A stretch of 64,000 bases of DNA from a virus (IMGVR_UViG_3300037448_000016:13935-77934); one strand, 5' to 3'. Counted from the first letter of the stretch, positions 2,459-59,597 are shown. The notes: a model not told the origin generated them from the sequence alone. Made by a program: numbers and translations.

Positions 2459-2490
2459 ATTGTCCACCCCTTGACAGCAAGTTGTCAACT
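2459..2490 (-). promoter_or_regulatory. Sigma70-type promoter of the repeated family
   Basis: TTGACA-18 bp-GACAAT on the minus strand. Confidence 0.6.
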
Positions 2491-4763
2491 CACGTGGCGT
2501 ACGGTTCCGGCACCGGATCGGCAGCGTTCCGGACGCCACCACCCTTGATCTTCAGTCCCACCACGAACCACGTTCCGGACGACTTCACCCGATGGAAGCC
2601 AGCGTTTTCCAGGCGGGAGTAGAACTCCCCGGCTCTCAGGCGGCCGTTCCCGTTGCGGTCGGCCCACATCTTGTAGGTCGAGTAGCAGGTGGTCTGTAAC
2701 TCCCGGTGGTCTTCGGTGAGCGTGCATTCCTCTTCGACCCACTGCCGAACCTGGTCTATCTTCGTAGCGAAATCCGCCTCGCCCTGGGCCACTTCGCCTT
2801 CGGACTTGAAGTTACGCCGGACCATCAGGACCCGGAGCGCCTCCACGGCGCGGGCGGCGACGGCCGGGAGTTCGGCGGCCAACTTGTCGTCCAGATCGGG
2901 ATCGACTTCGGAGTCGGTGATCTGGCGGTCGAACTTGATGATCTTCCAGCGGCGCAGGTAGCCGAATGACGTGTCGGCCGAACCCGGGGCCTTGTTCGCG
3001 CTGAACATCGGTACGGCCCAGCACGTGTAGCGGAACGACTGACGGTGTTTCTCCTCAGCGTCGAGCATGTCGCCGCCGGTGAGTTTCTTGAACTTGCCGG
3101 TGTTCTCCTGGAACGTGGGGTCGATGTCCCCGGCCAGGTTGGCGATCCGGCCGAACAGGCTGGCAGCGGCGAACCGGTTGTTCGACAGCGAGTCCAGGTC
3201 CACGGCGGCGCAGTTCGCCGGGCCGAGCATGTGCTCGATCACCCGCATCAGCGTGCCTTTCCCGTTGCGCCCGTTGCCCAGCAGCATGAACGCCACCTGA
3301 AGCGGGTTGCCCGAGAACAGCATGTAGCCGAGCATTTCCCAGGTGTACTCGATGTAGTCGGGGGAGAGGATCTGGGACAGGAACTTGTCGAACAGCGGGG
3401 TGTCCTTGTCGCCCGTCCAGGCGAGCGGGAACTGCACGGTGGAGCCGAAATGCGGGGCGTGGTCGATGAGTTCCCCGGTACGCCAGTCCAGCATCCCGTT
3501 CGTGAAATTCATGTAGTCCGCGATCGGCTCGACGTTGATCTCGCCGGTGTAGTGCCGGACCATCGTGGCCGCGTTGGAGGCGTGGTTGCCCCGGAAGCGC
3601 GGGCCGAGCAGCCGGACGGTGCGGGCCTCGACGACGTGCGGGTCGGACTTCCAGACGCCGTTCTTGTACGACCAGAACCCGCCGTCGCGTCCCCACAGCA
3701 GCGGGCCCATGTCCATCGCGTCGCGGGCCAGCAGTTCGGCGTCGATCCCTTCCTTGCCGAAGTACTCGTCAGGCCGCCGTGGAGGCTGCCAGGACGTCGT
3801 CACGCTCACCGGCGCCGTGGTCTGCACGCTGGCTTTCTGGGCGGCGTCCTTGGCTGCGAGCCGCCCCTGCACCTCAGCCTTGCGCTTGACCGGATCGGTG
3901 GCCAGCGCCTGCGAGACGGCCCAGGCGATGACCCCCTTGAACTCGTTGCGGGGGAACCGGTCCCCGGCCATGTACGCCTCGAAATCCTGCCACAGACCGT
4001 CGATCACGGACTGGGCCGGGTAGTACCCGGCGCGGGCCTCGCGCATCCCCCAGACCGCTGCCCGGACCAGCGCCTCGTGCCGCGAGCCCCGGGCGTCGGT
4101 GCAGTCGTCCACGAACTTGGCCAGTACCGGCTTCAGCAGGTGGGCCATCTCGGAGTGGTTGTTCTCCGCGATGAAATCGGCCACCGTCTTGTCGTCGGCC
4201 ACGTCTTCGGCCCGCTGGCCGTTCGGGAGTTTCGATGAGATCTCCGGCGGCAGAACGGGAACCTCACCGGTGCGCACCCAGTGGTAACGCCCGTGGTCCT
4301 TGGTGTGGGCCGAAGGCGCGACGACGATGATGCCGTTGGTGCCGCGCACCTCACCGAATGCCTGCCCGAGTTCGCCCCGCCCGTTGCCGAGGACGCGCCC
4401 TTCCGGGACGGTGAAGATGTAGTGGCCCCGGCGCGGGTCGTTGTCCCGGGTGGACTGGAACGGCGCTGAGAGCAGGTGCGGAACAAGATCTTTCGGGAAG
4501 TCGTCCGGCGAGTCGACGTCCAGTGCCACGGCGCCGGACCGGCCGACGTGCAGGGCGAGCATCAGGTTGGTGCCCGCGAACCAGTCCGCGATCTCCATCG
4601 GATCGTTGGACGTCTTGTGCTGCCACTTGTTCCCGAGGATTTTCGCCGGGCGCTTCGTGTCGGGCTCGACGGGAAGCACGTACCAGCCAGCCCGCGCGTA
4701 AGCGATTGCGGCGGTGATGATATCGGCGTCGTCTGTGACCTCGGGAATGCGCAACGCTGTCAC
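2490..4763 (-). CDS. Bifunctional primase/polymerase (Prim-Pol) fused to D5/P4-type SF3 helicase
   Basis: N-terminal AIAYARAGWYVLPV...VALDVD...GHYIF...GIIVVAPSAH; C-terminal Walker A GNGRNGKG, KKLTGGD and AEEKH; winged-helix-like tail. Confidence 0.9.
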   Translation of the reverse strand: MTALRIPEVTDDADIITAAIAYARAGWYVLPVEPDTKRPAKILGNKWQHKTSNDPMEIADWFAGTNLMLALHVGRSGAVALDVDSPDDFPKDLVPHLLSAPFQSTRDNDPRRGHYIFTVPEGRVLGNGRGELGQAFGEVRGTNGIIVVAPSAHTKDHGRYHWVRTGEVPVLPPEISSKLPNGQRAEDVADDKTVADFIAENNHSEMAHLLKPVLAKFVDDCTDARGSRHEALVRAAVWGMREARAGYYPAQSVIDGLWQDFEAYMAGDRFPRNEFKGVIAWAVSQALATDPVKRKAEVQGRLAAKDAAQKASVQTTAPVSVTTSWQPPRRPDEYFGKEGIDAELLARDAMDMGPLLWGRDGGFWSYKNGVWKSDPHVVEARTVRLLGPRFRGNHASNAATMVRHYTGEINVEPIADYMNFTNGMLDWRTGELIDHAPHFGSTVQFPLAWTGDKDTPLFDKFLSQILSPDYIEYTWEMLGYMLFSGNPLQVAFMLLGNGRNGKGTLMRVIEHMLGPANCAAVDLDSLSNNRFAAASLFGRIANLAGDIDPTFQENTGKFKKLTGGDMLDAEEKHRQSFRYTCWAVPMFSANKAPGSADTSFGYLRRWKIIKFDRQITDSEVDPDLDDKLAAELPAVAARAVEALRVLMVRRNFKSEGEVAQGEADFATKIDQVRQWVEEECTLTEDHRELQTTCYSTYKMWADRNGNGRLRAGEFYSRLENAGFHRVKSSGTWFVVGLKIKGGGVRNAADPVPEPYAT

Positions 4764-8291: not shown

Positions 8292-8559
8292 GTACGGGGC
8301 GCCGCCGATCGAGCGGCCCAACATGGAGAAGATCTGGGACAAGGCGCGGGCCGACGCGCGGGCGGAGGGTGCTCAGGAACGAGCCACCCTCCGCCGCGAA
8401 CTCCATCACCAGACGCTGACCTGGCTGGAGACGACCTTCCCCAAGACGAAACTCACGGTCGCTCAGAAGGATTCTCTGGCTGAGGTGTTCGGGCTGGGTC
8501 CAGTACCAGCCGGACTGAGCCCGGACTCAGACCCAGCAGGGCAATCTCGGCTTCCGTAA
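8272..8559 (+). CDS. Hypothetical phage protein
   Basis: 95-aa ORF with GGGAG RBS. Confidence 0.55.
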   Translation: MSVSHPEYGAPPIERPNMEKIWDKARADARAEGAQERATLRRELHHQTLTWLETTFPKTKLTVAQKDSLAEVFGLGPVPAGLSPDSDPAGQSRLP

Positions 8560-8782
8560 AGCCGTACTCCCGCAGGAACTTGCGCGCCCTGCCGGACACC
8601 TGACGTTTCGGGCAGCCGCCCTCGTGGATCGCCACGAGGGCGGCTGTTTTTTCTGCCTGGGCCACGGCGAGCCGGGCCTTCGCTTTCAGCACGGACAGTG
8701 CCGCAGCGGACAGCCGTTCCATCGGGCTCTGCTCGATCGGCCGGGTCGCGAAGTGTGGCGGTGGGGGCATCTTGTCGACCAT
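8453..8782 (-). CDS. Hypothetical protein, possible HTH; last gene of the T4SS operon
   Basis: TAGGAG RBS before MVDKMP; C-terminal FTEAEIALLGLSPGSVRLVL is HTH-like. Confidence 0.55.
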   Translation of the reverse strand: MVDKMPPPPHFATRPIEQSPMERLSAAALSVLKAKARLAVAQAEKTAALVAIHEGGCPKRQVSGRARKFLREYGFTEAEIALLGLSPGSVRLVLDPARTPQPENPSERP

Positions 8783-8790
8783 GGGTGCTC

Positions 8791-9744
8791 CTAGTGCTTC
8801 ACTGAGACGTGGACGTGGTTGACGTGGTCGAGCGTGTCGCTGTGCCCACCGGAAGGGTGGGCGTAAGGGCGCCATTGCCCGGTCTCGCTGGTGAAGATCC
8901 GCTTGTTGAAGATGACGTAGTGCCCACCGACCTGGGCCAGGTTCGCGGCCCAGTAGTCCGCTATCTCCTGTCCGAGGTCGTGCTTGTCGGCGGATCGGTA
9001 GTCGCTGCCCAGCATGATGTCCACGGCGTTTCCGGTCGCGTGGTCGGACAGCGTGCCGGTGCCAGCGATCGTGCGGTAGGCGTACCCACCGATCGAGGAG
9101 ATGCACGGCGGCGGGTTCGTGGCGCAGCCCCAGTCTTTCAGCGTCAGGGCTTTGATGTTCTCCGCGCGGGGGCGTAAGCCGTCGCCCCCTTGCGGTCCAC
9201 TCCCCGGATCGGACAGCGCTCCGTCCGCCACGGCGTTGCAGTCCAGACCGAGCCCGTCGACCGCCTCCTGAGCCGCCCCGATGAACTGCCGGTACGATCC
9301 TGACCAGAACGTGACCCAGGGAGAGAAACCATGCGCATCGGTCCATATCTGGAAGGCCACCGAGGCATTGAAGGCTGGATCGTGCCAGTCGCCGTGCGCC
9401 AGAAGGGCCGCGTGTACCGAGTTGATCTGCCACAGGCCGTAATCCGTGGACCCGTTGGTGTTCAGATTCGTGATATTTGCGTTCCATCCGGACTCCGCGT
9501 GCGCAATGGCCACAGCAGTGACCAGGTTGTCTCCGCGAAATCCAGCGGCCAGCGCGGCTTTCGCTACGGCAGCACCATCGCTGGCCGCGTGCCCCGTGAT
9601 GGAGCACGCCTGGCTGGCCGGACCGCCGCCGAGAGCCAGCGATGGAACCGGCGGAGCGCCGCCGCCCGGCAGGCCCGTGAACAGGACCGCCAGGACGGCA
9701 AGGGCCGCCGCACCGGCCAGCGCTAGGCGCTTCAATCCGCCCAC
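8791..9744 (-). CDS. VirB1/TcpG-like cell-wall hydrolase: lytic transglycosylase plus C-terminal M15-like Zn-peptidase domain
   Basis: N-terminal TM/signal; AVAIAHAESG...DYGLWQIN (SLT); SDHATGNAVD...HVNHVHVS. Confidence 0.8.
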   Translation of the reverse strand: MGGLKRLALAGAAALAVLAVLFTGLPGGGAPPVPSLALGGGPASQACSITGHAASDGAAVAKAALAAGFRGDNLVTAVAIAHAESGWNANITNLNTNGSTDYGLWQINSVHAALLAHGDWHDPAFNASVAFQIWTDAHGFSPWVTFWSGSYRQFIGAAQEAVDGLGLDCNAVADGALSDPGSGPQGGDGLRPRAENIKALTLKDWGCATNPPPCISSIGGYAYRTIAGTGTLSDHATGNAVDIMLGSDYRSADKHDLGQEIADYWAANLAQVGGHYVIFNKRIFTSETGQWRPYAHPSGGHSDTLDHVNHVHVSVKH

Positions 9745-10208
9745 GTCAGGCCGGTGCAGAGCCAGTCGCCGGAGACGACGTCCATCGTGACGAGCAGCGC
9801 GCCCCGGTTGGTGGGTACGCTGATCTCCTGCTCGGTCGGGCCGTCTTTCGACACGGTGGCCGAGCCGGTGATCACGGCATCCTTGGGCGCCTCGTTCGTC
9901 GTCAGGTCTTCCAGCACCGGCGGGGAGTACAGGTCGTCGTTCATCACGCCCCGGAACCAGCCGTCAACGGCGCTGATGGCGTCAGGGACGGCCGATCCGT
10001 GGGCGGGCCAGGTGAACGGGTCGGTGCCGGACGGCGATGGCGTCTGCGGGGTGTAGACGGGCGGCCGGGGCCCGGCCGTCGTGGTCGGGCTCGCTTCGGT
10101 CTTCGGGCCGGGCAGGTGGCTGACCGACCGGGCGATGTTGAACCCGGCCAGCACAGCGATCACGGTGAGCAGGGCGGCGATGGTGATTCTCTGGCGGTTG
10201 TTGTTCAT
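9732..10208 (-). CDS. Bitopic conjugation protein, VirB8/TcpC-like (inferred)
   Basis: One N-terminal TM, P/T linker, C-terminal VPTNRGALLVTM...GDW beta-rich domain; operon position. Confidence 0.5.
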   Translation of the reverse strand: MNNNRQRITIAALLTVIAVLAGFNIARSVSHLPGPKTEASPTTTAGPRPPVYTPQTPSPSGTDPFTWPAHGSAVPDAISAVDGWFRGVMNDDLYSPPVLEDLTTNEAPKDAVITGSATVSKDGPTEQEISVPTNRGALLVTMDVVSGDWLCTGLTWAD

Positions 10209-12082
10209 GGCGTGCCTTCCGGGTCGCTGGTGCTGGTGTCGAACATCTGACGGTGCCTGTTCTGCGCGGCTTTACGCGCTTCCTCCCGGTCCTGCTCGGC
10301 GGCCATCCGGGCGTATTCCTCACGGACCACGTCCAGCGGCCGGGTGTAGAACTCGGTCTGCGTGTTGGCCGGTGGCGGTACCGGGTCCGGAACGAACTCC
10401 TCACCGGCCTGGGACGGCCGGTACAGCACCGCGCCGGGCGCCTCCGAGCCCTCGTCGTCGCTGGGCTCGGAGGCGGGTGCGGCCTGAGCCGAGGTGAGGT
10501 AAGACGTGACGTGGGCGTGGGCGTCACGGACCCGCTCCATCCGCTCCTCGTGCTCCTCCTCGCTCTCCCGCGCCCCGGCGGCGGCGCCCTTGCTGACGGC
10601 CCAGGCCATGGCGCCGATGCCGGTGACCTTGCCGACCACGTGCCGGACCAGCCTGCCGTGCCCGCGTATGCGACCGGCGCTCATCAGCGCGAGCGCTTTC
10701 CGGTCGGGCCGCAGCGCCGTCCAGAAAATGAAGACACCCAGGCCCATCAGCAGGAAAGACACCCACGTCGGCCAGCCCGGCTGCATCACGGCCTCGGTGT
10801 AGACGGTATAGAGCCAGGTCCCGATCGCTGCGGTCACCACGATGCCGAGCGCCTGCGACGTGGTGTCGAGCAGCCCCTTGCCCGTCCGGTGCCCCTGCGG
10901 AGTGACCAGCCACGGCGAGGCGAGCAGCCAGACGATCCCGAGGATGGCCAGCAGCAGGATGCACATGATCATCAGGAGGTTGGCGAAGATCCGGAAGAAC
11001 GCCACCGTCAGCGCGAACGCCATCTCGTACAGCGCCGGGCCCGACCCGGCGGCCTGCTCACCGGTCAGCCACCGGTACGCCGCCGGGTCGGAATCTTTCA
11101 CCTCACCAGCGATCTTCTTAAACGCATCCGACTTCTCTTTCAGCAGCGCCTGGCGATCCTTGATCCGTTCCTCGCGATCGGCCTTGTCCTTGGCGAGCGC
11201 CGGGTCGGTGGCCTGGGCTTGGGCCCAGGTGATCCGGGTGGCGGCCAGCAGCGCCGGGCCGTACGTGCGGGCGGTGTCAGACTCGTCGGTGCCGAACGTC
11301 CGCCGCAGCCAGCCGTCGTAGTGGATGGCCTCCATCGCCCGGTCGGTCGCGGCCTGGGCCGGGGAGGCGCCTTCGTACAGCGACGAGGTCACCGCACCGA
11401 CTCCGGCCTGCGTGCTGGTCGCCACCTTCGTCGGGGCCATGATGACGAAACCACCGATCAGCAGGACGATCATGACCCAGGTGATCTGGCTCATCACACC
11501 CGCCGTGTCGCCGCGCTTGGCGCGCCGGAACAGCATGACGGTGCAGAACAGCAGCCCCAGACCCAGGAACGGCAGCAGGATCCGCTTGGAGATCACCGTG
11601 ATGGCCTTGTTCGCCAGCGTGCCGAGCAGTTTCGTCACCCAGGACGGATCGAACGCGAACCGGCTGGTGGCGTCCGCCGCCGCCGTGGAGGCTTGCCCGA
11701 TGCCGACCAGTTTCCTGGCCAGCGACTCGTCACCCCAGGCGTTCAGGTGCTTGCCCCAGTTCGTCACGTTGATCGAGCAGCCCAGGTCGTAGGTGAACGG
11801 CGACATTCCGGAGAAGCCGCTGGTCTCGTACAGGTGCGCGGGGTCGACCGGCTTCTCCCCGACGTCCGGCGGGTCACTGGGCCGGTCGGCGAACAGGCCG
11901 GGCACGCCGACGCTGGGCAACTGCGGTACGGGCGCGGACGGCTGGCAGACCCCCGGCAGGGCCTTCTCCACGGCGAGGGGCTCCGCCGCCTGGGCCCGGG
12001 AGCCGAGCGCGATGCTGAGCAGTACCGCGAGCAGCAGCACGCCGGAAGCGATCCGGCCGATGGTGGACTTCAGGATCCTCAT
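10205..12082 (-). CDS. Polytopic membrane protein, VirB6/TrbL/TcpH-like
   Basis: Signal peptide, several TM segments, acidic/Pro C-tail; ATGA overlap with VirB4. Confidence 0.7.
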   Translation of the reverse strand: MRILKSTIGRIASGVLLLAVLLSIALGSRAQAAEPLAVEKALPGVCQPSAPVPQLPSVGVPGLFADRPSDPPDVGEKPVDPAHLYETSGFSGMSPFTYDLGCSINVTNWGKHLNAWGDESLARKLVGIGQASTAAADATSRFAFDPSWVTKLLGTLANKAITVISKRILLPFLGLGLLFCTVMLFRRAKRGDTAGVMSQITWVMIVLLIGGFVIMAPTKVATSTQAGVGAVTSSLYEGASPAQAATDRAMEAIHYDGWLRRTFGTDESDTARTYGPALLAATRITWAQAQATDPALAKDKADREERIKDRQALLKEKSDAFKKIAGEVKDSDPAAYRWLTGEQAAGSGPALYEMAFALTVAFFRIFANLLMIMCILLLAILGIVWLLASPWLVTPQGHRTGKGLLDTTSQALGIVVTAAIGTWLYTVYTEAVMQPGWPTWVSFLLMGLGVFIFWTALRPDRKALALMSAGRIRGHGRLVRHVVGKVTGIGAMAWAVSKGAAAGARESEEEHEERMERVRDAHAHVTSYLTSAQAAPASEPSDDEGSEAPGAVLYRPSQAGEEFVPDPVPPPANTQTEFYTRPLDVVREEYARMAAEQDREEARKAAQNRHRQMFDTSTSDPEGTP

Positions 12083-14667
12083 ACCAGTTCCCCTTCGCGG
12101 TAGGCCCATCCTTCGGCACCGGCCGGGGTGGGGTTGGTCAGGACGACGTTACGCAGCGCCTGGTGATAGTCGACGTCGACTTTCAGGCCGCCGACTCGCC
12201 CGTCCGCGTCCAGGTGGACGAACTCGCCGGGGCGTCGGGTCGAAAGTTCCATCAGCACACGGGCATACGACTTGTCCTCGATGTGGAGGATCGACAGCAT
12301 CGCCTCGGCTGGTTCCGGGTTGGCCATCCGGCCGACGAACGCACCGGCCAGGAAGTTGCGCAGTTCGCCACCCATCATCTCGTCGGTGACGTTTTTCAGC
12401 CCGAGGTACACCGCGATGTTCCACTTGGAGTGGTCACGGCCCAGACGGTTCAGTTGCCCGCGCCCCGTTCCAGTGTCGAGCAGGTCCTCGGCTTCGTCGA
12501 AAATGCCGATGGCCCGTTCGTGGCGCGGCTTGCTGAACAGCAGCCGGTCCGTGTAGAGCGACGTCAAAAGGAGGATCGGGTCGGCGGCGTGCTCCGTCGC
12601 CGTCCAGTCGACCCGGTCCGAGGAGTCCGGCGCCCGGCGGATCCCGGGGGTCGAGATCACGGTCAGACCGGAGTATGACGCCGGAGAAAAGTCGTCGGTC
12701 GACTTCTCCGGGGGGAACAGCAGGCGGAACAGCGGCATGTCGGCAGCGTCCCGCAGCGCGGCCGAGACCTGGTCGGCGTGCTCGTCGCCCAGGGTCTCCA
12801 GCCCGTTGATCAGGTCCCACATCGTCGCGTACTGCGTCCAGCGGGTCAGGCCAGCCGCCCGGCGCAGCGCCCCGAAGGTGGCGGGGTGCCCGTACAGGTC
12901 GGGGGTCAGGCACCGCCGGGCCACATCGATCGTCAGGGCCCGGCGCTGGGCCAGCGCCTCGTCCTCCGACGTCGCCGAATCCGAGTCGTAGCGGATCAGG
13001 CTCGGCGGGTTCAAGATGCCGCGCTCGCCTTCGAGCAGGTTCAGCGAGCGGCTGATCCCCCGCAGTTCCGGCATCTGGCACAAGGCCATCATCGGGCCGG
13101 ACGGGTCACGGGCGACCACCCGGCCACCGCGCCGGGCGCCGTGGTAGGCGATCGACTCCAGCAGCACCGACTTGCCGCCGCCGAGGGTGGACACGACCGC
13201 CCACATGTTCTGCGAGCGGCCCAGTTCTCCCCGGCCTTCGGTGGCGTACCACGGGTCGTGCATGACCGGGCGCCGGGCGGCCCCAAGCGTGAAGCCGATG
13301 TACGGGCCCCGGCCGTCCCCGATGGCGCTGGACACGTTCGGCATCCCGGCGGCCAGGTAGGACAGCCGGACCTGACGCTGGTAGCCGCTGGTGTCGTAGG
13401 ACTCGCCGGGGACCGTTTCCCGCAGTCGCATCGCCTGGCCGTGCGCGGCGGTGAAATCCATCCGCATCGCGCCGGAGCCGTACAGCCGCCGGAAGGCGTC
13501 GGCCCGCTCCTCACAGGACTGCTCGGCCGACTTGACCACCCGCCCGTCCCGCTCGCGCGTCTCCTCACCGACGATGATCGCGTTGATCGTCCCGACGAAC
13601 CGGGCCGCGTACCGGGGCTGGCCGGTGGTGACCTGGTCGCGGATCTCCTTGGCCAGCGAGATACCCCGCTCGGTGTACTCGGGCGGCAGTTCGTCGAACA
13701 GCCGGTAGGTGTCGTTGATGTTGATGGCCTTGTTCAGGTCGAGGGTGGCCTGCTTCGCCAGTTCCTCGCCGGAGCGGATCCGGCCCTGCAACGACCACTC
13801 CACGGCGATGGGGGAGCCGTCCGAGTCGACCAGACGCTCGGCGAACGCCTGCCACGGCTCCAGCCCGTTCTCCGGGTAGTGCAGGTCGGCCAGCCGCGCG
13901 GCGGTCAGCACCTGCACGTGCCGGGTCTGCTGCACGCCGTCACGCCATGCCGTGACCTCGACCGTGCGGTCGAAGCGTGACTCGGCCCACCGCACGTCGT
14001 TGGACAACTCGGGAAGGTCACGCACGTCCCAGCCGGTCTCGGCTGCACGCATGGGGGCGGGCATTCCGGGGGCCAGCGAGCGCTCGTGGATCCAGCCCTG
14101 CTCGCGCTCGGTCATGCGTACGGCACGCCACCCGGTCACGGCGTCATGCACACGCTTCTCCTCCGCCAGAAGCGTGCCGACCTCCGCCGACACGGGCGTG
14201 CCCGTGCGTGCGTGCGTGAGGATCTCGCCCCGCACGTCACGGCCGGGCTCCACCGTGCCGACCGTGAACCAGCGGAAGACGATCTTGTCTTCCATGCCGG
14301 ACGCCCCGATCCGCCGCTGCATCCGCACCAGGTAGTCGTCCCAGGTCTCCCCGTCCACATCCGGTACGGGAGCCGGGGTGCGCCGGTCCAGGTCGGCGGC
14401 CCAGGCCGCAACGGGGTGCGGGCGGTTCGTGACGCGCTCCCTGAAGTCCCGGCCCGCCAGTTCGGCCCAGACGTCGGCCGACGCCTCAATGAGCCCGCTA
14501 CGGGCCTCCAGAGGCATGAAGTCCCAGCGGGACGCCCCGATCCGGTACCCGGCCCAGACCCGGCCGTCGCTGGCCACCACCAGATTGGAGACGATCTGCC
14601 GGACACCCGGGGCGATCTGAGCGTGCATCGGAGCCGAAAGGTCGGCTTTCGCCTTACGCCAGATCAT
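12079..14667 (-). CDS. virB4: VirB4/TcpF-like T4SS ATPase
   Basis: About 862 aa; Walker A STLGGGKS, VVARDPSG, Walker B IGIFDEAEDLL, RDHSKWNIAVYL, GEFVHLDADGRVG. Confidence 0.88.
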   Translation of the reverse strand: MIWRKAKADLSAPMHAQIAPGVRQIVSNLVVASDGRVWAGYRIGASRWDFMPLEARSGLIEASADVWAELAGRDFRERVTNRPHPVAAWAADLDRRTPAPVPDVDGETWDDYLVRMQRRIGASGMEDKIVFRWFTVGTVEPGRDVRGEILTHARTGTPVSAEVGTLLAEEKRVHDAVTGWRAVRMTEREQGWIHERSLAPGMPAPMRAAETGWDVRDLPELSNDVRWAESRFDRTVEVTAWRDGVQQTRHVQVLTAARLADLHYPENGLEPWQAFAERLVDSDGSPIAVEWSLQGRIRSGEELAKQATLDLNKAININDTYRLFDELPPEYTERGISLAKEIRDQVTTGQPRYAARFVGTINAIIVGEETRERDGRVVKSAEQSCEERADAFRRLYGSGAMRMDFTAAHGQAMRLRETVPGESYDTSGYQRQVRLSYLAAGMPNVSSAIGDGRGPYIGFTLGAARRPVMHDPWYATEGRGELGRSQNMWAVVSTLGGGKSVLLESIAYHGARRGGRVVARDPSGPMMALCQMPELRGISRSLNLLEGERGILNPPSLIRYDSDSATSEDEALAQRRALTIDVARRCLTPDLYGHPATFGALRRAAGLTRWTQYATMWDLINGLETLGDEHADQVSAALRDAADMPLFRLLFPPEKSTDDFSPASYSGLTVISTPGIRRAPDSSDRVDWTATEHAADPILLLTSLYTDRLLFSKPRHERAIGIFDEAEDLLDTGTGRGQLNRLGRDHSKWNIAVYLGLKNVTDEMMGGELRNFLAGAFVGRMANPEPAEAMLSILHIEDKSYARVLMELSTRRPGEFVHLDADGRVGGLKVDVDYHQALRNVVLTNPTPAGAEGWAYREGELV

Positions 14668-15631
14668 CGATCTCCCCCTGCCGGACAGCGGCCTCTTCGG
14701 CAACGGACACCATGGCTTCGTACGCCTGACCGAACTCCGAGCGCTGCACGCAGAACACGCTCCCGGTCTCGGTGTTGAACACGACGACCGTGCCGTCTTC
14801 GAGCGGCACGCCGTTGGCCGTGACCGCTGCACGCACGAGCACCTCCGTGCCCGTGCCGTCCGCGTGCAGCACGCGCTTCATCTGCACGCGCGTGACCTGC
14901 ACGCTGGCCCCCCGGTCACGCAACCACACCAGCACGTGCTGGCCGAGGCGCTCGTCGCGTGCAGTGGAGTCGAACAGCATCGCCTCCACCACGGGCCTGC
15001 GTTCCCTGTACTTGATCACCATGATGTCCTCCGGGTCGTAGTCGTTCAGGCTGGCCATGAAGTCGAGCAGGACCTGGTCGGCCTGCTCCGTGTCGAGAAC
15101 GAGGGGAAGGACCTCCACGGCGAGGGGGGTCCGCAGCGGGGCGACACCGCGCCACTGCTCCGGCAGCGTGCGCAGCCAGAAGGTCACCGGCCGGTTCCCG
15201 TCGATGAACGGGCGGGCCTGGCGCACCAGCAGGAACGCGACCAGCACGGCCAGCGGCCCGGCGGCCCAGAACGGCGACGGGAAGATCCACTTCGCCGGAT
15301 TCGGGACGATCACGAGGCCGAACAGCACCGCCACCCCAGCGATGACCACCTGGCCCCGCCTGCGGGCCGCTGCGGGCCTGGAGAAGGTCAGGCGGGCCAA
15401 GTGGTCCAGGGCCATCCCGTTGGCCGCCCAGCGGCCGAACAGGGCCGCGCTGAGGCCGACGATGCCGCCTACCGGGACCACCAGCCACAGCAGGGCGAAC
15501 AGCACCGGCACCGACAGCAGGCCGATCGCCCACTCGGTGTACGTCGCGTCGAACGGCCAGCGCCACGCACCGGTCGGCCCCAGCCACGGCGAGCGCAGAT
15601 TGCGCGAGGCGTCCTCGCTGCGCTGGATCAC
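14654..15631 (-). CDS. TcpE/VirB3-like conjugation membrane protein with C-terminal extension
   Basis: N-terminal WLGPTGAWRWPF, four TM segments, PFIDGNRP; directly upstream of virB4. Confidence 0.6.
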   Translation of the reverse strand: MIQRSEDASRNLRSPWLGPTGAWRWPFDATYTEWAIGLLSVPVLFALLWLVVPVGGIVGLSAALFGRWAANGMALDHLARLTFSRPAAARRRGQVVIAGVAVLFGLVIVPNPAKWIFPSPFWAAGPLAVLVAFLLVRQARPFIDGNRPVTFWLRTLPEQWRGVAPLRTPLAVEVLPLVLDTEQADQVLLDFMASLNDYDPEDIMVIKYRERRPVVEAMLFDSTARDERLGQHVLVWLRDRGASVQVTRVQMKRVLHADGTGTEVLVRAAVTANGVPLEDGTVVVFNTETGSVFCVQRSEFGQAYEAMVSVAEEAAVRQGEIDDLA

Positions 15632-15723
15632 CGCCACAACCACCGATCGAACGCCTCCACCGCGACGAGCCCGGCCAGCACGGCACCGGCCAGCACCCCC
15701 GCCACGAACAGCACGGGCCTCAC
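15628..15723 (-). CDS. 31-aa single-TM peptide
   Basis: GTGA overlaps at both ends; MRPVLFVAGVLAGAVLAGLVAVEAFDRWLWR. Confidence 0.55.
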   Translation of the reverse strand: MRPVLFVAGVLAGAVLAGLVAVEAFDRWLWR

Positions 15724-16118
15724 TCCGGCTGCCCGTCGCGCGACGGCTCCGGGCCGAACCCGGCCGACGTGAGCACCTGCTGGAAGGCGTCGAGCGCTGA
15801 ACCGCTCGTGAGCGGCCGGTTGAGCGCTGGCGCCCCGATCCGGGCGAATCGGATCTCCAGGTTCATGAGCCCGTGGCTGACGAGGTGGTCGACCTCCACG
15901 TTGGACAGCGTCCACACCGTGGCGATCGGCTCGGCGAAGAAATGCGCCTTCAGCGCGTCCGCGATCCCGTCCGGCAGGACGCTGGCCGGGACACGCCTGG
16001 GGAGGGACGGCCGGTCTCGTTCCGGGCCGCCCTCGCTGAACGTCAGGGTGACGTCGTCGATGTAGTTGCCTTCCACCTCCCGGCGGAAGTGGCTGAGGTG
16101 GTACTTCAGGTCGCTCAC
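15720..16118 (-). CDS. Hypothetical soluble protein in the T4SS operon
   Basis: 132-aa ORF with GTGA coupling. Confidence 0.6.
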   Translation of the reverse strand: MSDLKYHLSHFRREVEGNYIDDVTLTFSEGGPERDRPSLPRRVPASVLPDGIADALKAHFFAEPIATVWTLSNVEVDHLVSHGLMNLEIRFARIGAPALNRPLTSGSALDAFQQVLTSAGFGPEPSRDGQPE

Positions 16119-16414
16119 TTGCTCAGGAAGGGGACGGACCAGCCGAGGAACGCGGCGGCGAAGGCCAGGCCGGTACCGGCGATCCCGATCGCGCCGGGGA
16201 TGAGCGCGAGCAGGGTGGCGCCGACGATGTCGAAGATCTTGCGGGTGTTGCCCTTGCGGGCGTGCCCGGCGAGCGCTGCGAGCGTGATCCAGATCAGAAC
16301 GAGGCTGATCCCGAGCAGCAGCAGCGCGCGGGCCTTGTTCAGAGTGCTGTTCGGCGTGAAATCGCCGGTGGCGGCCAACTCGGTGGCGGCCTGGAGAGCC
16401 TGCACGTGGGTCAT
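16115..16414 (-). CDS. Small two-TM protein, VirB2/TcpD pilin-like (inferred)
   Basis: 99 aa; two hydrophobic helices around a basic loop HARKGNTRK; first gene of the operon; GAGGGG RBS. Confidence 0.55.
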   Translation of the reverse strand: MTHVQALQAATELAATGDFTPNSTLNKARALLLLGISLVLIWITLAALAGHARKGNTRKIFDIVGATLLALIPGAIGIAGTGLAFAAAFLGWSVPFLSK

Positions 16415-16440
16415 GGCTTAACCCCTCTCGCTAGTGGGCT

Positions 16441-16475
16441 ATCAACATAACACGTGTAGTCAGGCCGTTGTCAAC
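16441..16475 (-). promoter_or_regulatory. Promoter/operator of the T4SS operon (repeated family)
   Basis: GTTGACAACGGCCTGAC...TATGTT. Confidence 0.7.
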
Positions 16476-16513
16476 CCGCCGTACGCGGTGCGTAACCGTC
16501 ACAGGGCGCGGAA

Positions 16514-16720
16514 CCAGGGATTTTTTGGCAGGGACAGGGAAATTCAAAACACAGGCTCTATGGGCACATAGGAGCAAATAGTTTCTGGAGTCCCTAGAGA
16601 CCCTCTGAGCACGAAAAAAATCCCTGGCAGGGAGAAAACTTCCCTAGCCGGACGGCGCCAGCGGCGCACCCGCTACGCCGCGGAGGCAGTCCGCTACCCA
16701 CTGCGACGGCAGGGAGAAAT
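16514..16720. repeat. AT-rich AGGGA/TCCCT A-tract boxes, site 1
   Basis: CCAGGGATTTTTT (16514) and AAAAAATCCCTGG (16615) form an inverted pair; AGGGAGAAAACTTCCCT at 16629. Confidence 0.75.
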
Positions 16721-16721
16721 G

Positions 16722-16759
16722 CGAAAGGGGCCAGGATCGAAAAATCCCTGGCCCCTTCG
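16722..16759 (-). terminator. Hairpin after the holin gene
   Basis: GAAAGGGGCCAGG...CCTGGCCCCTTCG stem. Confidence 0.65.
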
Positions 16760-16769
16760 TCACGCTCGG

Positions 16770-17135
16770 TTACCGGGTTGCGGTGTGCCCGAGCACCCGA
16801 ACGCCGTAGTGGTCAGCCACGTTGGCCACGGTGCCGACCTGGATGGCGCCGACGAACGCGATCAGGATGGCCGCCCGCTCCGCAGGGGAGATCACGCCGT
16901 CCGTCCAGGCGTCCACTACGGCCAGCACGACCGCCGTGAAGATGGCGATGGCCTCCTTGGCGTTGGGCTGGGTGACGGTGTTGGCCTTGAAGTACACCGC
17001 CAGCGCGCCCAGGAACGTCACCACGGCGCCGATGACCACCGGCCGGGTAAAGTCCCCGGCGATGAGCGCGGCGGCCCCAGTGGAGCCCAGGACGGCGATG
17101 AGCGCGTACTGAATTGCTTTCGCTGCGTAATCCAT
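16770..17135 (-). CDS. Holin (multi-TM)
   Basis: 121 aa, four hydrophobic segments, directly after the endolysin. Confidence 0.7.
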   Translation of the reverse strand: MDYAAKAIQYALIAVLGSTGAAALIAGDFTRPVVIGAVVTFLGALAVYFKANTVTQPNAKEAIAIFTAVVLAVVDAWTDGVISPAERAAILIAFVGAIQVGTVANVADHYGVRVLGHTATR

Positions 17136-17158
17136 TGCTTACTCCTACGTCGCCCGGC

Positions 17159-17881
17159 TCAGCCGGTCCACTTGATGCCGAGGGCCTTGCAGGTGAGCGG
17201 GCCCACGGCGGGATTCCTGTGATCCGCCCGCAGCGCGGGGGATGGTGAGTGCAACTTGAACGACTGCACCGCAGCCGTCGTCTTCGGGCCGAAGTCGCCG
17301 TCTGCGGTCAGCCGTGCCTTGGCCACCGCGTTCAGCGTCTTCTGGAGCAGGATGGTCGAGCGGTGATGGGACGTACCGGGCACCAGCACGAACGAGATCG
17401 ACTTCGTCGGGGTCTTCGCTTCACGGGCCACGCGGATCTTCTTGGCCAGCGCGGCGACCGCTGCCTTACCCGCGTTGATCTCGAAGTGCATCTCGTCCTT
17501 GCGGGAGGTGTAGTGCCCGCCCCAGCGGACCACACCGTCGCAGAAGTCGAGGATCTTGTCGATCGCCGCGACCTGTTTCGTGGTGAACGTGCCCCGGGCC
17601 GCCAGCGGGTGCTGGGGGGCGTTCAGATCGATCGCCGTACCGCTGGCGTGGTTGGAGATGGCCGTGGAACTGCCCCGGATCGTGCGGGCCGCGTAGCCCC
17701 AGCAACCGGGGACGACCAGGCGCTCAACGGTCTTGTTGAACTCGTCCGCGACGTAGATCAGCACGGTGGCGACGTCGCCGGGCAGGATCGGCAACTTCAC
17801 GGTGGTGGCGCCGGGCACGATGAAGGTGGCGATGTCGGCACGAGCGACGACCGGCCACCCGTTCTGGCTGTGATCGGTCAT
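17159..17881 (-). CDS. Endolysin: M15-family peptidase plus peptidoglycan-binding domain
   Basis: SQNGWP, WGYAAR, SNHASGTAIDLN, DEMHFE; LQKTLN...DGDFGPKT. Confidence 0.9.
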   Translation of the reverse strand: MTDHSQNGWPVVARADIATFIVPGATTVKLPILPGDVATVLIYVADEFNKTVERLVVPGCWGYAARTIRGSSTAISNHASGTAIDLNAPQHPLAARGTFTTKQVAAIDKILDFCDGVVRWGGHYTSRKDEMHFEINAGKAAVAALAKKIRVAREAKTPTKSISFVLVPGTSHHRSTILLQKTLNAVAKARLTADGDFGPKTTAAVQSFKLHSPSPALRADHRNPAVGPLTCKALGIKWTG

Positions 17882-49507: not shown

Positions 49508-50155
49508 ATGACGACGACGAAAGGTGCTCCCGTGGCAACGCTGGCCGACATCCTCCCCTCCGAGACTGCGATGGTCCGGAACATCCTGAAGGTCTACCGT
49601 TCCGCCACCGACGCGCAACGAGGCCAGGGAATGGCCTGGTACGACGAGGCGCACAGCCTGGCGGTTGCGCTGGACCCGGAGAACCCGATGCGAGCAGCCG
49701 GTGTCATCTCGGCGCTCTCCCCTCGGATCCAGTGGTCGTACAACCAGAAGTTGGCCATCCGGCTGTACGCCGACGGCGTGCTGACCGGCGGCTGCCTGCC
49801 TGCGAACTACACGAAGGCGAACAAGATCTTTAACGGGGCCGACGTGATGGCCACGCTGAAAGCACCCAAGACGCAAGCGTTCGCCGCGACCATTGCCAAT
49901 CCGGCAGGCGATCACGCTCCCGTGATCGACCGTCACGCTTTCAGCGTTGCCGTCGGATACGCCAGTACCGACGACGACACGTCGATCCTGGGACGCAAGG
50001 GGGCGTACGACCTGTTCGCCGGGGCGTACCGGAAGGCAGCGAAGCGGGCCGGGATCAGCCCGAGCCAGATGCAGGCCGTGACCTGGGTCGTGTGGCGCCA
50101 GACCGCGATCCGATACTCCGCTTCCATCCTCCGCGAGGAAACGGTTGCTGCCTGA
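49508..50155 (+). CDS. Phage protein with HhH-GPD/glycosylase-like features
   Basis: GMAWY, AAGVISALSP, KTQAF, PVIDRHA and QMQAVTW. Confidence 0.65.
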   Translation: MTTTKGAPVATLADILPSETAMVRNILKVYRSATDAQRGQGMAWYDEAHSLAVALDPENPMRAAGVISALSPRIQWSYNQKLAIRLYADGVLTGGCLPANYTKANKIFNGADVMATLKAPKTQAFAATIANPAGDHAPVIDRHAFSVAVGYASTDDDTSILGRKGAYDLFAGAYRKAAKRAGISPSQMQAVTWVVWRQTAIRYSASILREETVAA

Positions 50156-58501: not shown

Positions 58502-58737
58502 CAGAACTGGGCCTGCCCCGGCCGCTGGCAGGTCGCGTGGACCTCGGTGCCGCCGTACGGCGAGTAGGGGATCGAGTCGTTCCGCCCGTCCCGGTTGAAC
58601 CGGCGCCCGCTCTCGACCACGATCATGGTCTTGGTGACCCGCTTGATCACCGAGTGCCGATGCACCGGCCGGTCGGTCCCCTGTCCGGTGATGCAGACCC
58701 GCTGGCCGACCACCTGCTTCTCCTGCTCGATCATCAT
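58501..58737 (-). CDS. Small hypothetical protein
   Basis: ATGA overlap with the ArdC-like gene; IKRVTKTMIVV. Confidence 0.6.
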   Translation of the reverse strand: MMIEQEKQVVGQRVCITGQGTDRPVHRHSVIKRVTKTMIVVESGRRFNRDGRNDSIPYSPYGGTEVHATCQRPGQAQF

Positions 58738-59597
58738 GCCCCTTCGATCTGCGCGATCAGCGCCTTGGCTGTCCGCTGGACCCGCTGCCCGGCGGCCATG
58801 ACCTTGTCGACGCCGCCCCAGTGCGCGACGTAGGAGAAAGACGACGTGCCCATTTCCATCCCGAGCACCCGTCCGACCACGTACGCCACCGATTCGGCCT
58901 CCACTTCGGCCTCGCCCCGGTGCTGCTGGTACGAGTAGTCCTCCGCGAGGTGGCCGAGCATCACGTGTGCGATCTCGTGCAGCAGGGTGGCCACGGTCTG
59001 CGGCTCGTCCCCGGCGAACCGCGAGGAGATCACGATGTTTTTCAGCACGCCGTCGGTGTGCCCGTCTGCCGTGCCCGAGTCGCCGTAGGCCCACGGGTAA
59101 CCGGTCCCGGCCGCGATCCCGGCCAGCGTGACCAGCAGACCTTCCGGCACGGACGTCGCCACGGTGCCGTGGTCGACCGTGGGCAGCGGCTCGCCGTCGG
59201 TCTGCGAGACGTCGAACACGGTGGCCATCTTCCAGCCGACCAGTTTCGTGGCCTTCGGGTCACCGTTGGCCCGCTTAACGTCGTCCGGCACGATGACCGG
59301 CGCGAGCACCTTGAAGCCGGTCGATCCTTTGATCACGTTCCGGCCCGCCTTCTTCCAGACGCCGAAACCGGCGAACCGGGTGACCTCCATGTTGCGGATC
59401 GCGGCCTGCCGCAGCAGGAACAGGACGTTGCCGAACGAGTAGGAGTGGAACTGGGCGCTGAAGTCCAGCACGCGGACCCAGTCCTCGGAGGAACGGATTT
59501 CGGCCACCTGCGCCGCAATGGCGTTGTGGGCCTCGTCGAGCCGGGCGGCCTTCTCTTCGGCGCTCAGCGGGGTGTATGCCTTCGTTTTCGTCGTCAT
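58734..59597 (-). CDS. ArdC-like ssDNA-binding / antirestriction protein with HExxH metalloprotease-like domain
   Basis: YSFGNVLFL, FAGFGVWKKAGRNVIKG, VFDVSQTDG, LLHEIAH and EVEAESVAY. Confidence 0.8.
   Translation of the reverse strand: MTTKTKAYTPLSAEEKAARLDEAHNAIAAQVAEIRSSEDWVRVLDFSAQFHSYSFGNVLFLLRQAAIRNMEVTRFAGFGVWKKAGRNVIKGSTGFKVLAPVIVPDDVKRANGDPKATKLVGWKMATVFDVSQTDGEPLPTVDHGTVATSVPEGLLVTLAGIAAGTGYPWAYGDSGTADGHTDGVLKNIVISSRFAGDEPQTVATLLHEIAHVMLGHLAEDYSYQQHRGEAEVEAESVAYVVGRVLGMEMGTSSFSYVAHWGGVDKVMAAGQRVQRTAKALIAQIEGA

Follow-up and report, generated by a model that had tools for sequence, protein, structure and literature searches.

Why does a tailed phage that encodes its own virion also carry what look like the genes of a bacterial mating channel, and what would it use them for? 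The question is raised by a 64,000-nucleotide stretch of viral DNA (the window; bases 13935-77934 of the 77,934-bp IMG/VR virus record IMGVR_UViG_3300037448_000016), in which nine co-oriented genes occupy positions 8453-16414 of the minus strand, or 8453-16474 when their promoter is included. An earlier note on this DNA had described them as a complete conjugation or type IV secretion system (T4SS) channel operon of nine coupled genes. The coupling is confirmed: the junctions comprise two GTGA and two ATGA overlaps, two overlaps of 13-14 nt and one gap of 8 nt. The GC content at third codon positions is 0.81-0.94 in all nine genes, as high as in real genes here. From the evidence below we conclude, with high confidence, that the region is a T4SS-type mating-channel module made up of VirB4, VirB6-like, VirB8-like, VirB1-like and small transmembrane (TM) proteins.

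The gene g41 (12079-14667) encodes a VirB4-family ATPase of 862 residues, identified by Pfam AAA_10, the TcpF hidden Markov model (HMM), its fold and its Walker motifs. The match to AAA_10 is at 2.1e-14 (53.8 bits, gathering cut-off 27.5), and that to NCBIfam TcpF is at 3.6e-12, where 45 bits against a cut-off of 1100 mean that g41 is not a TcpF ortholog. The Walker A (GGGKS) and Walker B (DEAED) motifs are intact, with G496, G498, K499, D724 and E725 invariant in 18 homologues. An AlphaFold2 (AF2) model built on 18 homologues (predicted local distance difference test score, pLDDT, 80.3) was searched against the PDB with Foldseek, and the top 12 matches were all full-length R388 TrwK/VirB4 (E-values from 7e-19 to 1.7e-15). 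These alignments span 857-898 columns and both domains, with TM-scores of 0.48-0.61; HerA, DndH and TrwB align to the C-terminal ATPase half only, with lower scores. A sequence profile search of the PDB returned nothing beyond Walker-A-level matches. As judged from the predicted structure, g41 is a VirB4-family T4SS ATPase with the two-domain architecture. A reading of the region as a HerA-type defence system was rejected, PADLOC giving generic P-loop matches only (mad8 at 3e-06 for the VirB4 protein; mad8 and SspH for an FtsK protein described below).

The neighbouring gene, g40 (10205-12082), encodes a 625-residue polytopic protein with about six TM helices, a putative VirB6/TrbL-like subunit. 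Its nearest Atlas clusters are actinobacterial (feature score 0.96; PF04610 TrbL in 11-25% of members), and a 'TrbL/VirB6' cluster is matched with a structural TM-score of 0.71. On Streptomyces plasmids the homologue of g40 is the large gene that follows VirB4 (4e-21 and 5e-32), and neither g40 nor any of 11 orthologues has a direct Pfam match. The bitopic product of g39 (9732-10208; 158 residues) combines an N-terminal TM helix with a predicted extracytoplasmic NTF2-like domain resembling VirB8/TcpC, modelled with AF2 as an α+β domain (residues 70-158, pLDDT >93). In an exhaustive structural alignment against 48,161 PDB chains (VIA-align) the top four matches were VirB8-like (R64 TraM, Z 9.8; DotI, 9.7; pIP501 TraM, 9.1; IcmL-like, 9.0), with 88-89 residues aligned at a root-mean-square deviation of 2.5-2.8. 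PrgL, VirB8, TrwG, CagV, TcpC and TraE follow at Z 8.7-8.1, and VirB8 homologues account for about 15 of the best 33; the scores of generic NTF2 folds are level with these to within 1 Z unit. Foldseek gave weak matches only, none at E<=0.001.

The wall hydrolase, g38 (8791-9744; 317 residues), is VirB1-like, with a signal or TM segment, an SLT_3 lytic transglycosylase domain (SLT_3 8.8e-20, SLT 2.8e-07) and a C-terminal LAS/VanY-type metallopeptidase domain. It retains the ES motif of the transglycosylase and the H..D and HxH motifs of the peptidase. Orthologs combine SLT_3 with VanY/VldE, and the type of hydrolase varies among relatives (SLT plus VanY, or VanY alone); such variation is usual for T4SS hydrolases.

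The remaining products are small or accessory. At the head of the operon, g44 (16115-16414; 99 residues) has two TM helices by hydropathy and is conserved in five relatives (L002, L005, L010, L011 and L003), making it a candidate for a small membrane subunit of VirB2/VirB3 type. It is followed by g43 (15720-16118; 132 residues), a soluble protein of no known family with a weak ortholog in L002, and by a predicted 31-residue micro-ORF with a single TM segment (15628-15723), recognized by its hydrophobicity and by the overlap of its GTG start with the g43 stop. The 329-residue product of g42 (14654-15643) has three TM helices and a lineage-specific soluble C-terminal domain; its N-terminal 165 residues are conserved and common to the 154-171-residue proteins directly upstream of VirB4 in L003, L006 and L051. 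Together, g44 and the N-terminal part of g42 occupy the VirB3 position and are VirB3-like candidates by position and topology. The last gene, g38b (8453-8782; 109 residues), has an AGGAG ribosome-binding site upstream, and genes for 75-105 residues hold its position in L002, L005 and L011. The gene types named in the earlier note (a VirB4 ATPase, a polytopic, a bitopic and a two-TM protein, and an SLT/peptidase hydrolase) were thus correctly read, as judged by AAA_10, SLT_3 and TM analysis.

Where might such a module come from? A profile search of 1.84 billion representatives returned 341 VirB4 relatives at E<=1e-30, and the same cassette order was found on Streptomyces, Nonomuraea, Gordonia and Rhodococcus plasmids: two small proteins, VirB4 (~860-1000 residues), a large polytopic protein, a protein of ~180-280 residues and a wall hydrolase, with a VirD4 or FtsK/SpoIIIE gene adjoining. 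Examples are Streptomyces pSM17C (NZ_CP029341), Streptomyces sp. 891-h (NZ_CP050694) and Rhodococcus pseudokoreensis (NZ_CP070618), besides ~150 other PLSDB records. The phage VirB4 is ~30% identical to the plasmid proteins over >95% of its length, the polytopic proteins match at 4e-21 to 5e-32, and the neighbouring plasmid FtsK/SpoIIIE is homologous to a phage HNH-FtsK protein. The two versions also differ. On plasmids the coupling ATPase (VirD4/FtsK) is adjacent and has an N-terminal TM region and a long C-terminal tail, whereas the candidate in the phage is distant and carries an HNH domain; the plasmid hydrolase is of NlpC/P60, C40 or M23 type, whereas that of the phage is SLT plus LAS. 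The phage version further has the extra soluble domain on the protein upstream of VirB4, and it lies in a virion-encoding genome. Among 157 cassette-bearing plasmids, 117 are typed 'non-mobilizable', the ATPase being annotated merely as an 'ATP-binding protein', and it appears from these sequences that current plasmid typing misses a whole class of probable conjugation systems.

A stand-alone cassette was also seen in a chromosome. It lies at L006 6254-13818, on a 3.75-Mb chromosomal contig of an Actinomycetota metagenome-assembled genome (MAG; CAWIXB010000001.1), and encodes proteins of 88, 160, 864 (VirB4), 629, 190 and 347 (CHAP-like) residues. TetR and M20 peptidase genes flank it on one side and genes for an InhA-like protease, a hemerythrin and a luciferase-like protein on the other; no phage, relaxase, coupling or integrase gene was found near it.

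The order of the genes had been likened in the earlier note to a TcpD/E/F/H/C/G arrangement. It is not the gene order of pCW3 (tcpA-tcpH) and matches instead that of the actinobacterial plasmid cassettes; it also corresponds roughly to conD-conE-conG-cwlT of ICEBs1. The minimal roles assigned here are the same as in the MPF_FATA systems of monoderm bacteria (pCW3 Tcp, ICEBs1 Con/CwlT, Tn916 orf13-16, pIP501 and pCF10), namely VirB4, a VirB6-like protein, an NTF2 protein of VirB8 type, small subunits with TM segments and a bifunctional hydrolase of the wall. The ATPase domain of the phage protein is matched by the TcpF HMM, and the structural matches of g39 include pIP501 TraM, PrgL and TcpC. 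Unlike these systems, the phage operon has no TcpA/VirD4, and there is no relaxase and no adhesin.

Two further actinobacterial systems bear on the comparison. In the variant T4SS of pRAW the recognisable parts are only VirB4, a VirD4-like and a TcpC/VirB8-like protein, and the virB4-like gene was shown by experiment to be essential for conjugation (PMC4173767). Unlike the phage, pRAW depends on an ESX type VII system as well and encodes a TraA relaxase. On Streptomyces plasmids (SLP2, pSN22 and SAP1) a hexameric motor of FtsK/TraB type moves double-stranded DNA without a relaxase, and SLP2 ties an FtsK-like motor to a hydrolase, membrane proteins and an ATP-binding protein (as summarised in PMC13492992). 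The SLP2 transfer cassette was considered as the closest known system and rejected: the phage VirB4 is not detectably similar to it by tblastn, and the FtsK protein is so only weakly (1e-5).

The genome that holds the module is that of a genuine, complete tailed actinophage (Caudoviricetes) of high-GC Gram-positive soil hosts, with an intact head-tail module. The record has a 127-bp terminal overlap (direct terminal repeats), indicating a circular or circularly permuted assembly, and is rated 100% complete by CheckV. Its GC content is ~66%, that of the module (0.69-0.71) being slightly higher than the window mean (~0.66), and no tRNA genes were found in the window. The virion and lysis genes form one long minus-strand block. 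TerL matches PHROG phrog_19179 at 2e-134, and further matches identify a portal (SPP1_portal, 9e-22), a capsid protein (Phage_capsid, HK97-type, 3e-18) and a tail collar protein (Collar, 1e-25); a tape measure of 1182 residues and large distal tail proteins are also encoded. The portal is 56% identical to that of cultured Arthrobacter phages of ~43 kb. The placing of the module between the lysis cassette and the early genes, beside intact head and tail genes, holds as first described. The lysis cassette (16770-17881) comprises an M15_4 endolysin (17159-17881, minus strand; phrog_1512 1e-41, Peptidase_M15_4 5e-13) and a multi-TM protein (16770-17135, minus strand) that is holin-like by position and TM content; the early and replication genes flank the module on its other side.

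The module appears to be wired into this genome. Its putative promoter (16444-16474, minus strand) combines a TTGACAAC-N3-CTGAC box (16459-16474) with a TATGTT -10 element (16444-16449) and is an exact match to the motif. The box occurs 26 times in the window against about one expected, a count reached by none of 100 shuffles (examples lie at window positions 2473, 5690, 16459, 43971, 47544, 48361, 49472, 53467, 55573 and 61240), and four more times in the first 14.5 kb of the genome (L004 524, 1458, 2328 and 11658). Some 30 transcription units are headed by it, among them the T4SS operon, the PrimPol operon, the HNH-FtsK gene and a unit that runs into the packaging genes. By this distribution the box is a genome-wide promoter/operator regulon signal and not strictly a mark of early genes. 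The lysis genes are separated from the module by a repeat-rich spacer of 355 bp, in which terminator-like hairpins close the tail-lysis unit (16621-16757, minus strand; an 11-bp stem at 16725-16757 and a stem with a T-run at 16621-16633). The spacer repeats (window 16480-16760) are CCAGGGATTTTT(T), present three times with one copy inverted, and TTTCTCCCTGCC, present twice. They mostly fold into the terminator hairpins, and the spacer-repeat 10-mer is not enriched across the window (9 copies against 7.5 expected); the repeats could be regulatory or a cis-acting site of transfer (oriT). The module is bordered by a promoter of phage type on one side and a convergent phage gene on the other, an arrangement that relatives share.

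Homologues of the phage VirB4 at 39-69% identity come from metagenomes only, several of them on contigs of 70-83 kb. The earlier note had suggested a search for syntenic virB4 operons in other phage contigs, and seven or more assemblies, independent of one another and drawn from different samples (59-67% GC), proved to have them. The order tail-lysis-module-PrimPol-helicase is kept in every readable locus (L002, L003/G001, L005, L010/G006, L011, a 76-kb contig, G003 and G004), with PrimPol moved between the lysis genes and the module in one relative. When contigs were sampled by TerL instead, all those with TerL at >=65% identity that extend far enough carry the module, and six sister phages of 39-44 kb (TerL ~50%, 60-100% complete, some of them proviruses) have neither the module nor the FtsK gene. 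In a quick FastTree phylogeny of 86 VirB4 sequences, rooted on a long branch, the sequences in phage context form one clade (local support 100) nested among actinobacterial plasmid and chromosomal sequences, and its nearest outgroups include the Actinomycetota MAG cassette flanked by ordinary chromosomal genes. The topology fits one old capture by an ancestor of the lineage followed by vertical descent, an order of events that it can only suggest. No match to the module was obtained by megablast among 50,697 phage records, and tblastn gave one weak Enterococcus fragment for VirB4 and none for the VirB6-like protein; with no real match in these searches, no cultured phage record carries the module. 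No copy of the lineage was found in 185,579 species-representative genomes, apart from the phage-free chromosomal cassette in one MAG.

A candidate motor for the channel is encoded outside the window, 22 kb from the module (L004:2539-4161, plus strand; genome 2539-4161). The protein joins an HNH nuclease, a glycine-rich hydrophobic segment and an FtsK/SpoIIIE ATPase (FtsK_SpoIIIE, 2.7e-13). Its best plasmid matches are the FtsK genes that accompany the VirB4 homologues, 3-5 kb away, on 12 or more of those very plasmids, and these matches are stronger and longer than any to the FtsKs of cultured phages. The similarity reaches upstream of the ATPase core, with HNH in place of the N-terminal membrane region of the plasmid protein and the C-terminal tail missing. 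The fusion is present in three complete or near-complete genomes, G000, G001 (38% identity) and G004 (47%), with the HNH motif kept, and is missing from five sister genomes; its gene is preceded by the same type of promoter as the module. The HNH-FtsK protein is therefore a candidate counterpart of the plasmid FtsK motors, with a putative coupling-motor role.

Other plasmid-type and lineage-specific genes were observed in the genome. A protein with an ArdC N-terminal domain (single-stranded DNA-binding, antirestriction; 4.9e-09) is encoded at window 58734-59597 (minus strand) with a promoter box directly upstream. ArdC is typical of conjugative plasmids, and ArdC-type proteins are sent by plasmids through T4SSs. 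A DUF7178 protein (6.6e-53), encoded at window 49508-50155 on the plus strand, is homologous to one from the linear plasmid SLP2 of Streptomyces (tblastn, 2.4e-27), which makes its gene another of plasmid type. Four further products of the lineage-specific ~35 kb (L004 5724-6302, 7926-8750 and 8747-9244; window 2490-4763) are a Zeta-toxin/AAA_33-like kinase, a JAB/MPN peptidase, a YdjM-family membrane hydrolase and the PrimPol-D5-helicase replicase. The YdjM and JAB genes are found again beside the module in the relatives L051 and L010.

The explanation that we favour is that a plasmid-derived T4SS channel module of monoderm (actinobacterial) type was captured once, has been inherited vertically and serves the contact-dependent translocation of phage DNA. 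As a whole this statement is offered tentatively, since we judge it somewhat likelier to fail in some part than to stand, and the DNA-transfer function taken by itself is rather doubtful. The operon would be transcribed from the phage's own type of promoter. In the infected cell the hydrolase would open the wall, the VirB4, VirB6-like and VirB8-like proteins would build a wall-spanning channel, and the FtsK-type motor would feed phage DNA (possibly double-stranded and cut by HNH) or DNA-bound proteins through it. The cargo would pass into a touching neighbour, giving contact-dependent spread alongside virions. Conjugation of double-stranded DNA after the FtsK/TraB model would explain the absence of a relaxase. 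An apparently lytic lineage would then have two routes of transmission, virions on the one hand and, on the other, the T4SS and HNH-FtsK pumping replicating DNA into touching cells, a reading that we consider unlikely. Recipients on this two-route reading could be hyphal compartments, or neighbours that lack the receptor or resist adsorption.

Several observations weigh against DNA transfer. VirD4 (PF02534) is absent from G000, G001 and G004, in which positive controls were detected. The same holds for the relaxase families PF08751 (TrwC) and PF03432 (MobA/VirD2), Mob_Pre, Rep_trans and TcpM-like families not being among those tested, and no relaxase was found among ~60 proteins scanned with Pfam and PHROGs. 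Neither an oriT nor a clt site was identified, although oriT was not specifically tested. With no coupling protein in the operon and no VirD4 or tested relaxase in the three genomes, the module is not a complete conjugation system; of the earlier description, the T4SS-type channel module is real and the word 'complete' has to be given up. The accessory proteins are without a significant Pfam family (among 48 of them from 11 loci the best values were 0.057 for TrbC/VirB2, in one member, and 0.006 for DUF3828), and the labels VirB3-like and VirB6-like draw on gene position and topology together with similarity by language model or predicted structure. The link to the motor is circumstantial, since phages that lack a T4SS can have FtsK-like ATPases too, and the co-occurrence of module and FtsK gene is confounded by the ~35 kb of other lineage-specific genes. 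The promoter does not mark the operon as early, its box not being confined to early genes. Finally, integrase (PF00589) and serine recombinase (PF00239) are absent from the same three genomes (controls detected; att sites were not searched), as is ParA (PF13614), and no ParB or Rep initiator was seen in the scanned proteins, a genome-wide search for ParB not having been made. With no integrase, serine recombinase or ParA found, the phage looks lytic, which leaves little time for mating.

The missing transfer functions would be less of a difficulty if the channel moved proteins and not the genome, supplying neighbours with anti-defence or takeover proteins before they are infected, or if it acted in cis, at the membrane of the infected cell, as a device for superinfection or conjugation exclusion. 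Effector delivery is a known direction in which T4SSs have diversified (PMC12857230). The genome encodes an ArdC-N-like protein, of the kind that passes from plasmids through such systems, and the lineage-specific soluble domain of g42 could recruit substrates. No candidate effector bearing a recognisable secretion signal came to light, however, the retained plasmid-type FtsK motor points to DNA, and the closest relatives of the module are plasmid cassettes paired with DNA-transfer ATPases. We regard this explanation as improbable, if the best placed of the alternatives.

A further possibility is that the element is a plasmid-like prophage, or phage-plasmid, which conjugates while it is silently carried, so that the module would spread the carrier state and not lytic infection. 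The circular assembly with its 127-bp overlap would suit such an element, as would the PrimPol-D5 helicase replicase, a type also present on a related Streptomyces plasmid, and the plasmid-like genes for DUF7178 (common to SLP2), Zeta/AAA_33 and ArdC-N. Known phage-plasmids (the P1, N15 and SSU5 groups) likewise unite virion and plasmid-type genes in one element. By comparison the present lineage shows the reverse pattern, with a mating channel and no ParA or integrase found, and no phage-plasmid had been found to conjugate according to a 2025 review (PMC12282955). The three genomes also lack serine recombinase, the species-representative genomes hold no copy of the lineage beyond the phage-free MAG cassette, and no repressor turned up, no HMM search having been aimed at repressors. 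This reading seems to us a little weaker again than delivery of proteins or exclusion.

Alternatively, the module could be an accessory of lysis that remodels the envelope and helps the phage breach the thick actinobacterial wall at egress, with nothing translocated. In most relatives it stands directly after the endolysin and holin genes, and it includes a two-domain wall hydrolase. Yet it forms a separate transcription unit behind terminators, PrimPol lies between it and the lysis genes in one relative, a conserved VirB4 motor of 860 residues and a VirB6-like subunit are unneeded for lysis, and the same cassette serves plasmids that have no lysis genes, so that we give this explanation very little weight. 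That the module is an artefact or passenger (an assembly chimera, or a recent insertion of a plasmid or of an integrative and conjugative element, the two dangers named in the earlier note) is scarcely credible and was rejected on the comparative data, for against its slightly raised GC content stand the conserved synteny, with both junctions the same in all those independent assemblies, a deep and monophyletic phage VirB4 clade, the phage-type promoter on the operon and the lack of any integrase in the three genomes.

Gene flow by phage infection and gene flow by conjugation are regarded as distinct. Here, on the sequence evidence, a deep lineage of complete tailed phages keeps an intact T4SS channel module and a plasmid-type DNA motor under its own type of promoter. 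Phages go unmentioned in a 2025 review of T4SS diversity (PMC12857230). The comparison has also brought out a plasmid cassette that is widespread in actinobacteria (341 cluster representatives at E<=1e-30). Should phage DNA pass through the channel, host range, receptor-based resistance and spread through mycelia and biofilms would need rethinking for soil Actinomycetota, as would the separation of 'virus' from 'plasmid' in metagenomes, and if the two-route reading is true this would be the first bacterial virus shown to conjugate. Even if the channel serves effector delivery or exclusion instead, it would represent a new viral use of a T4SS.

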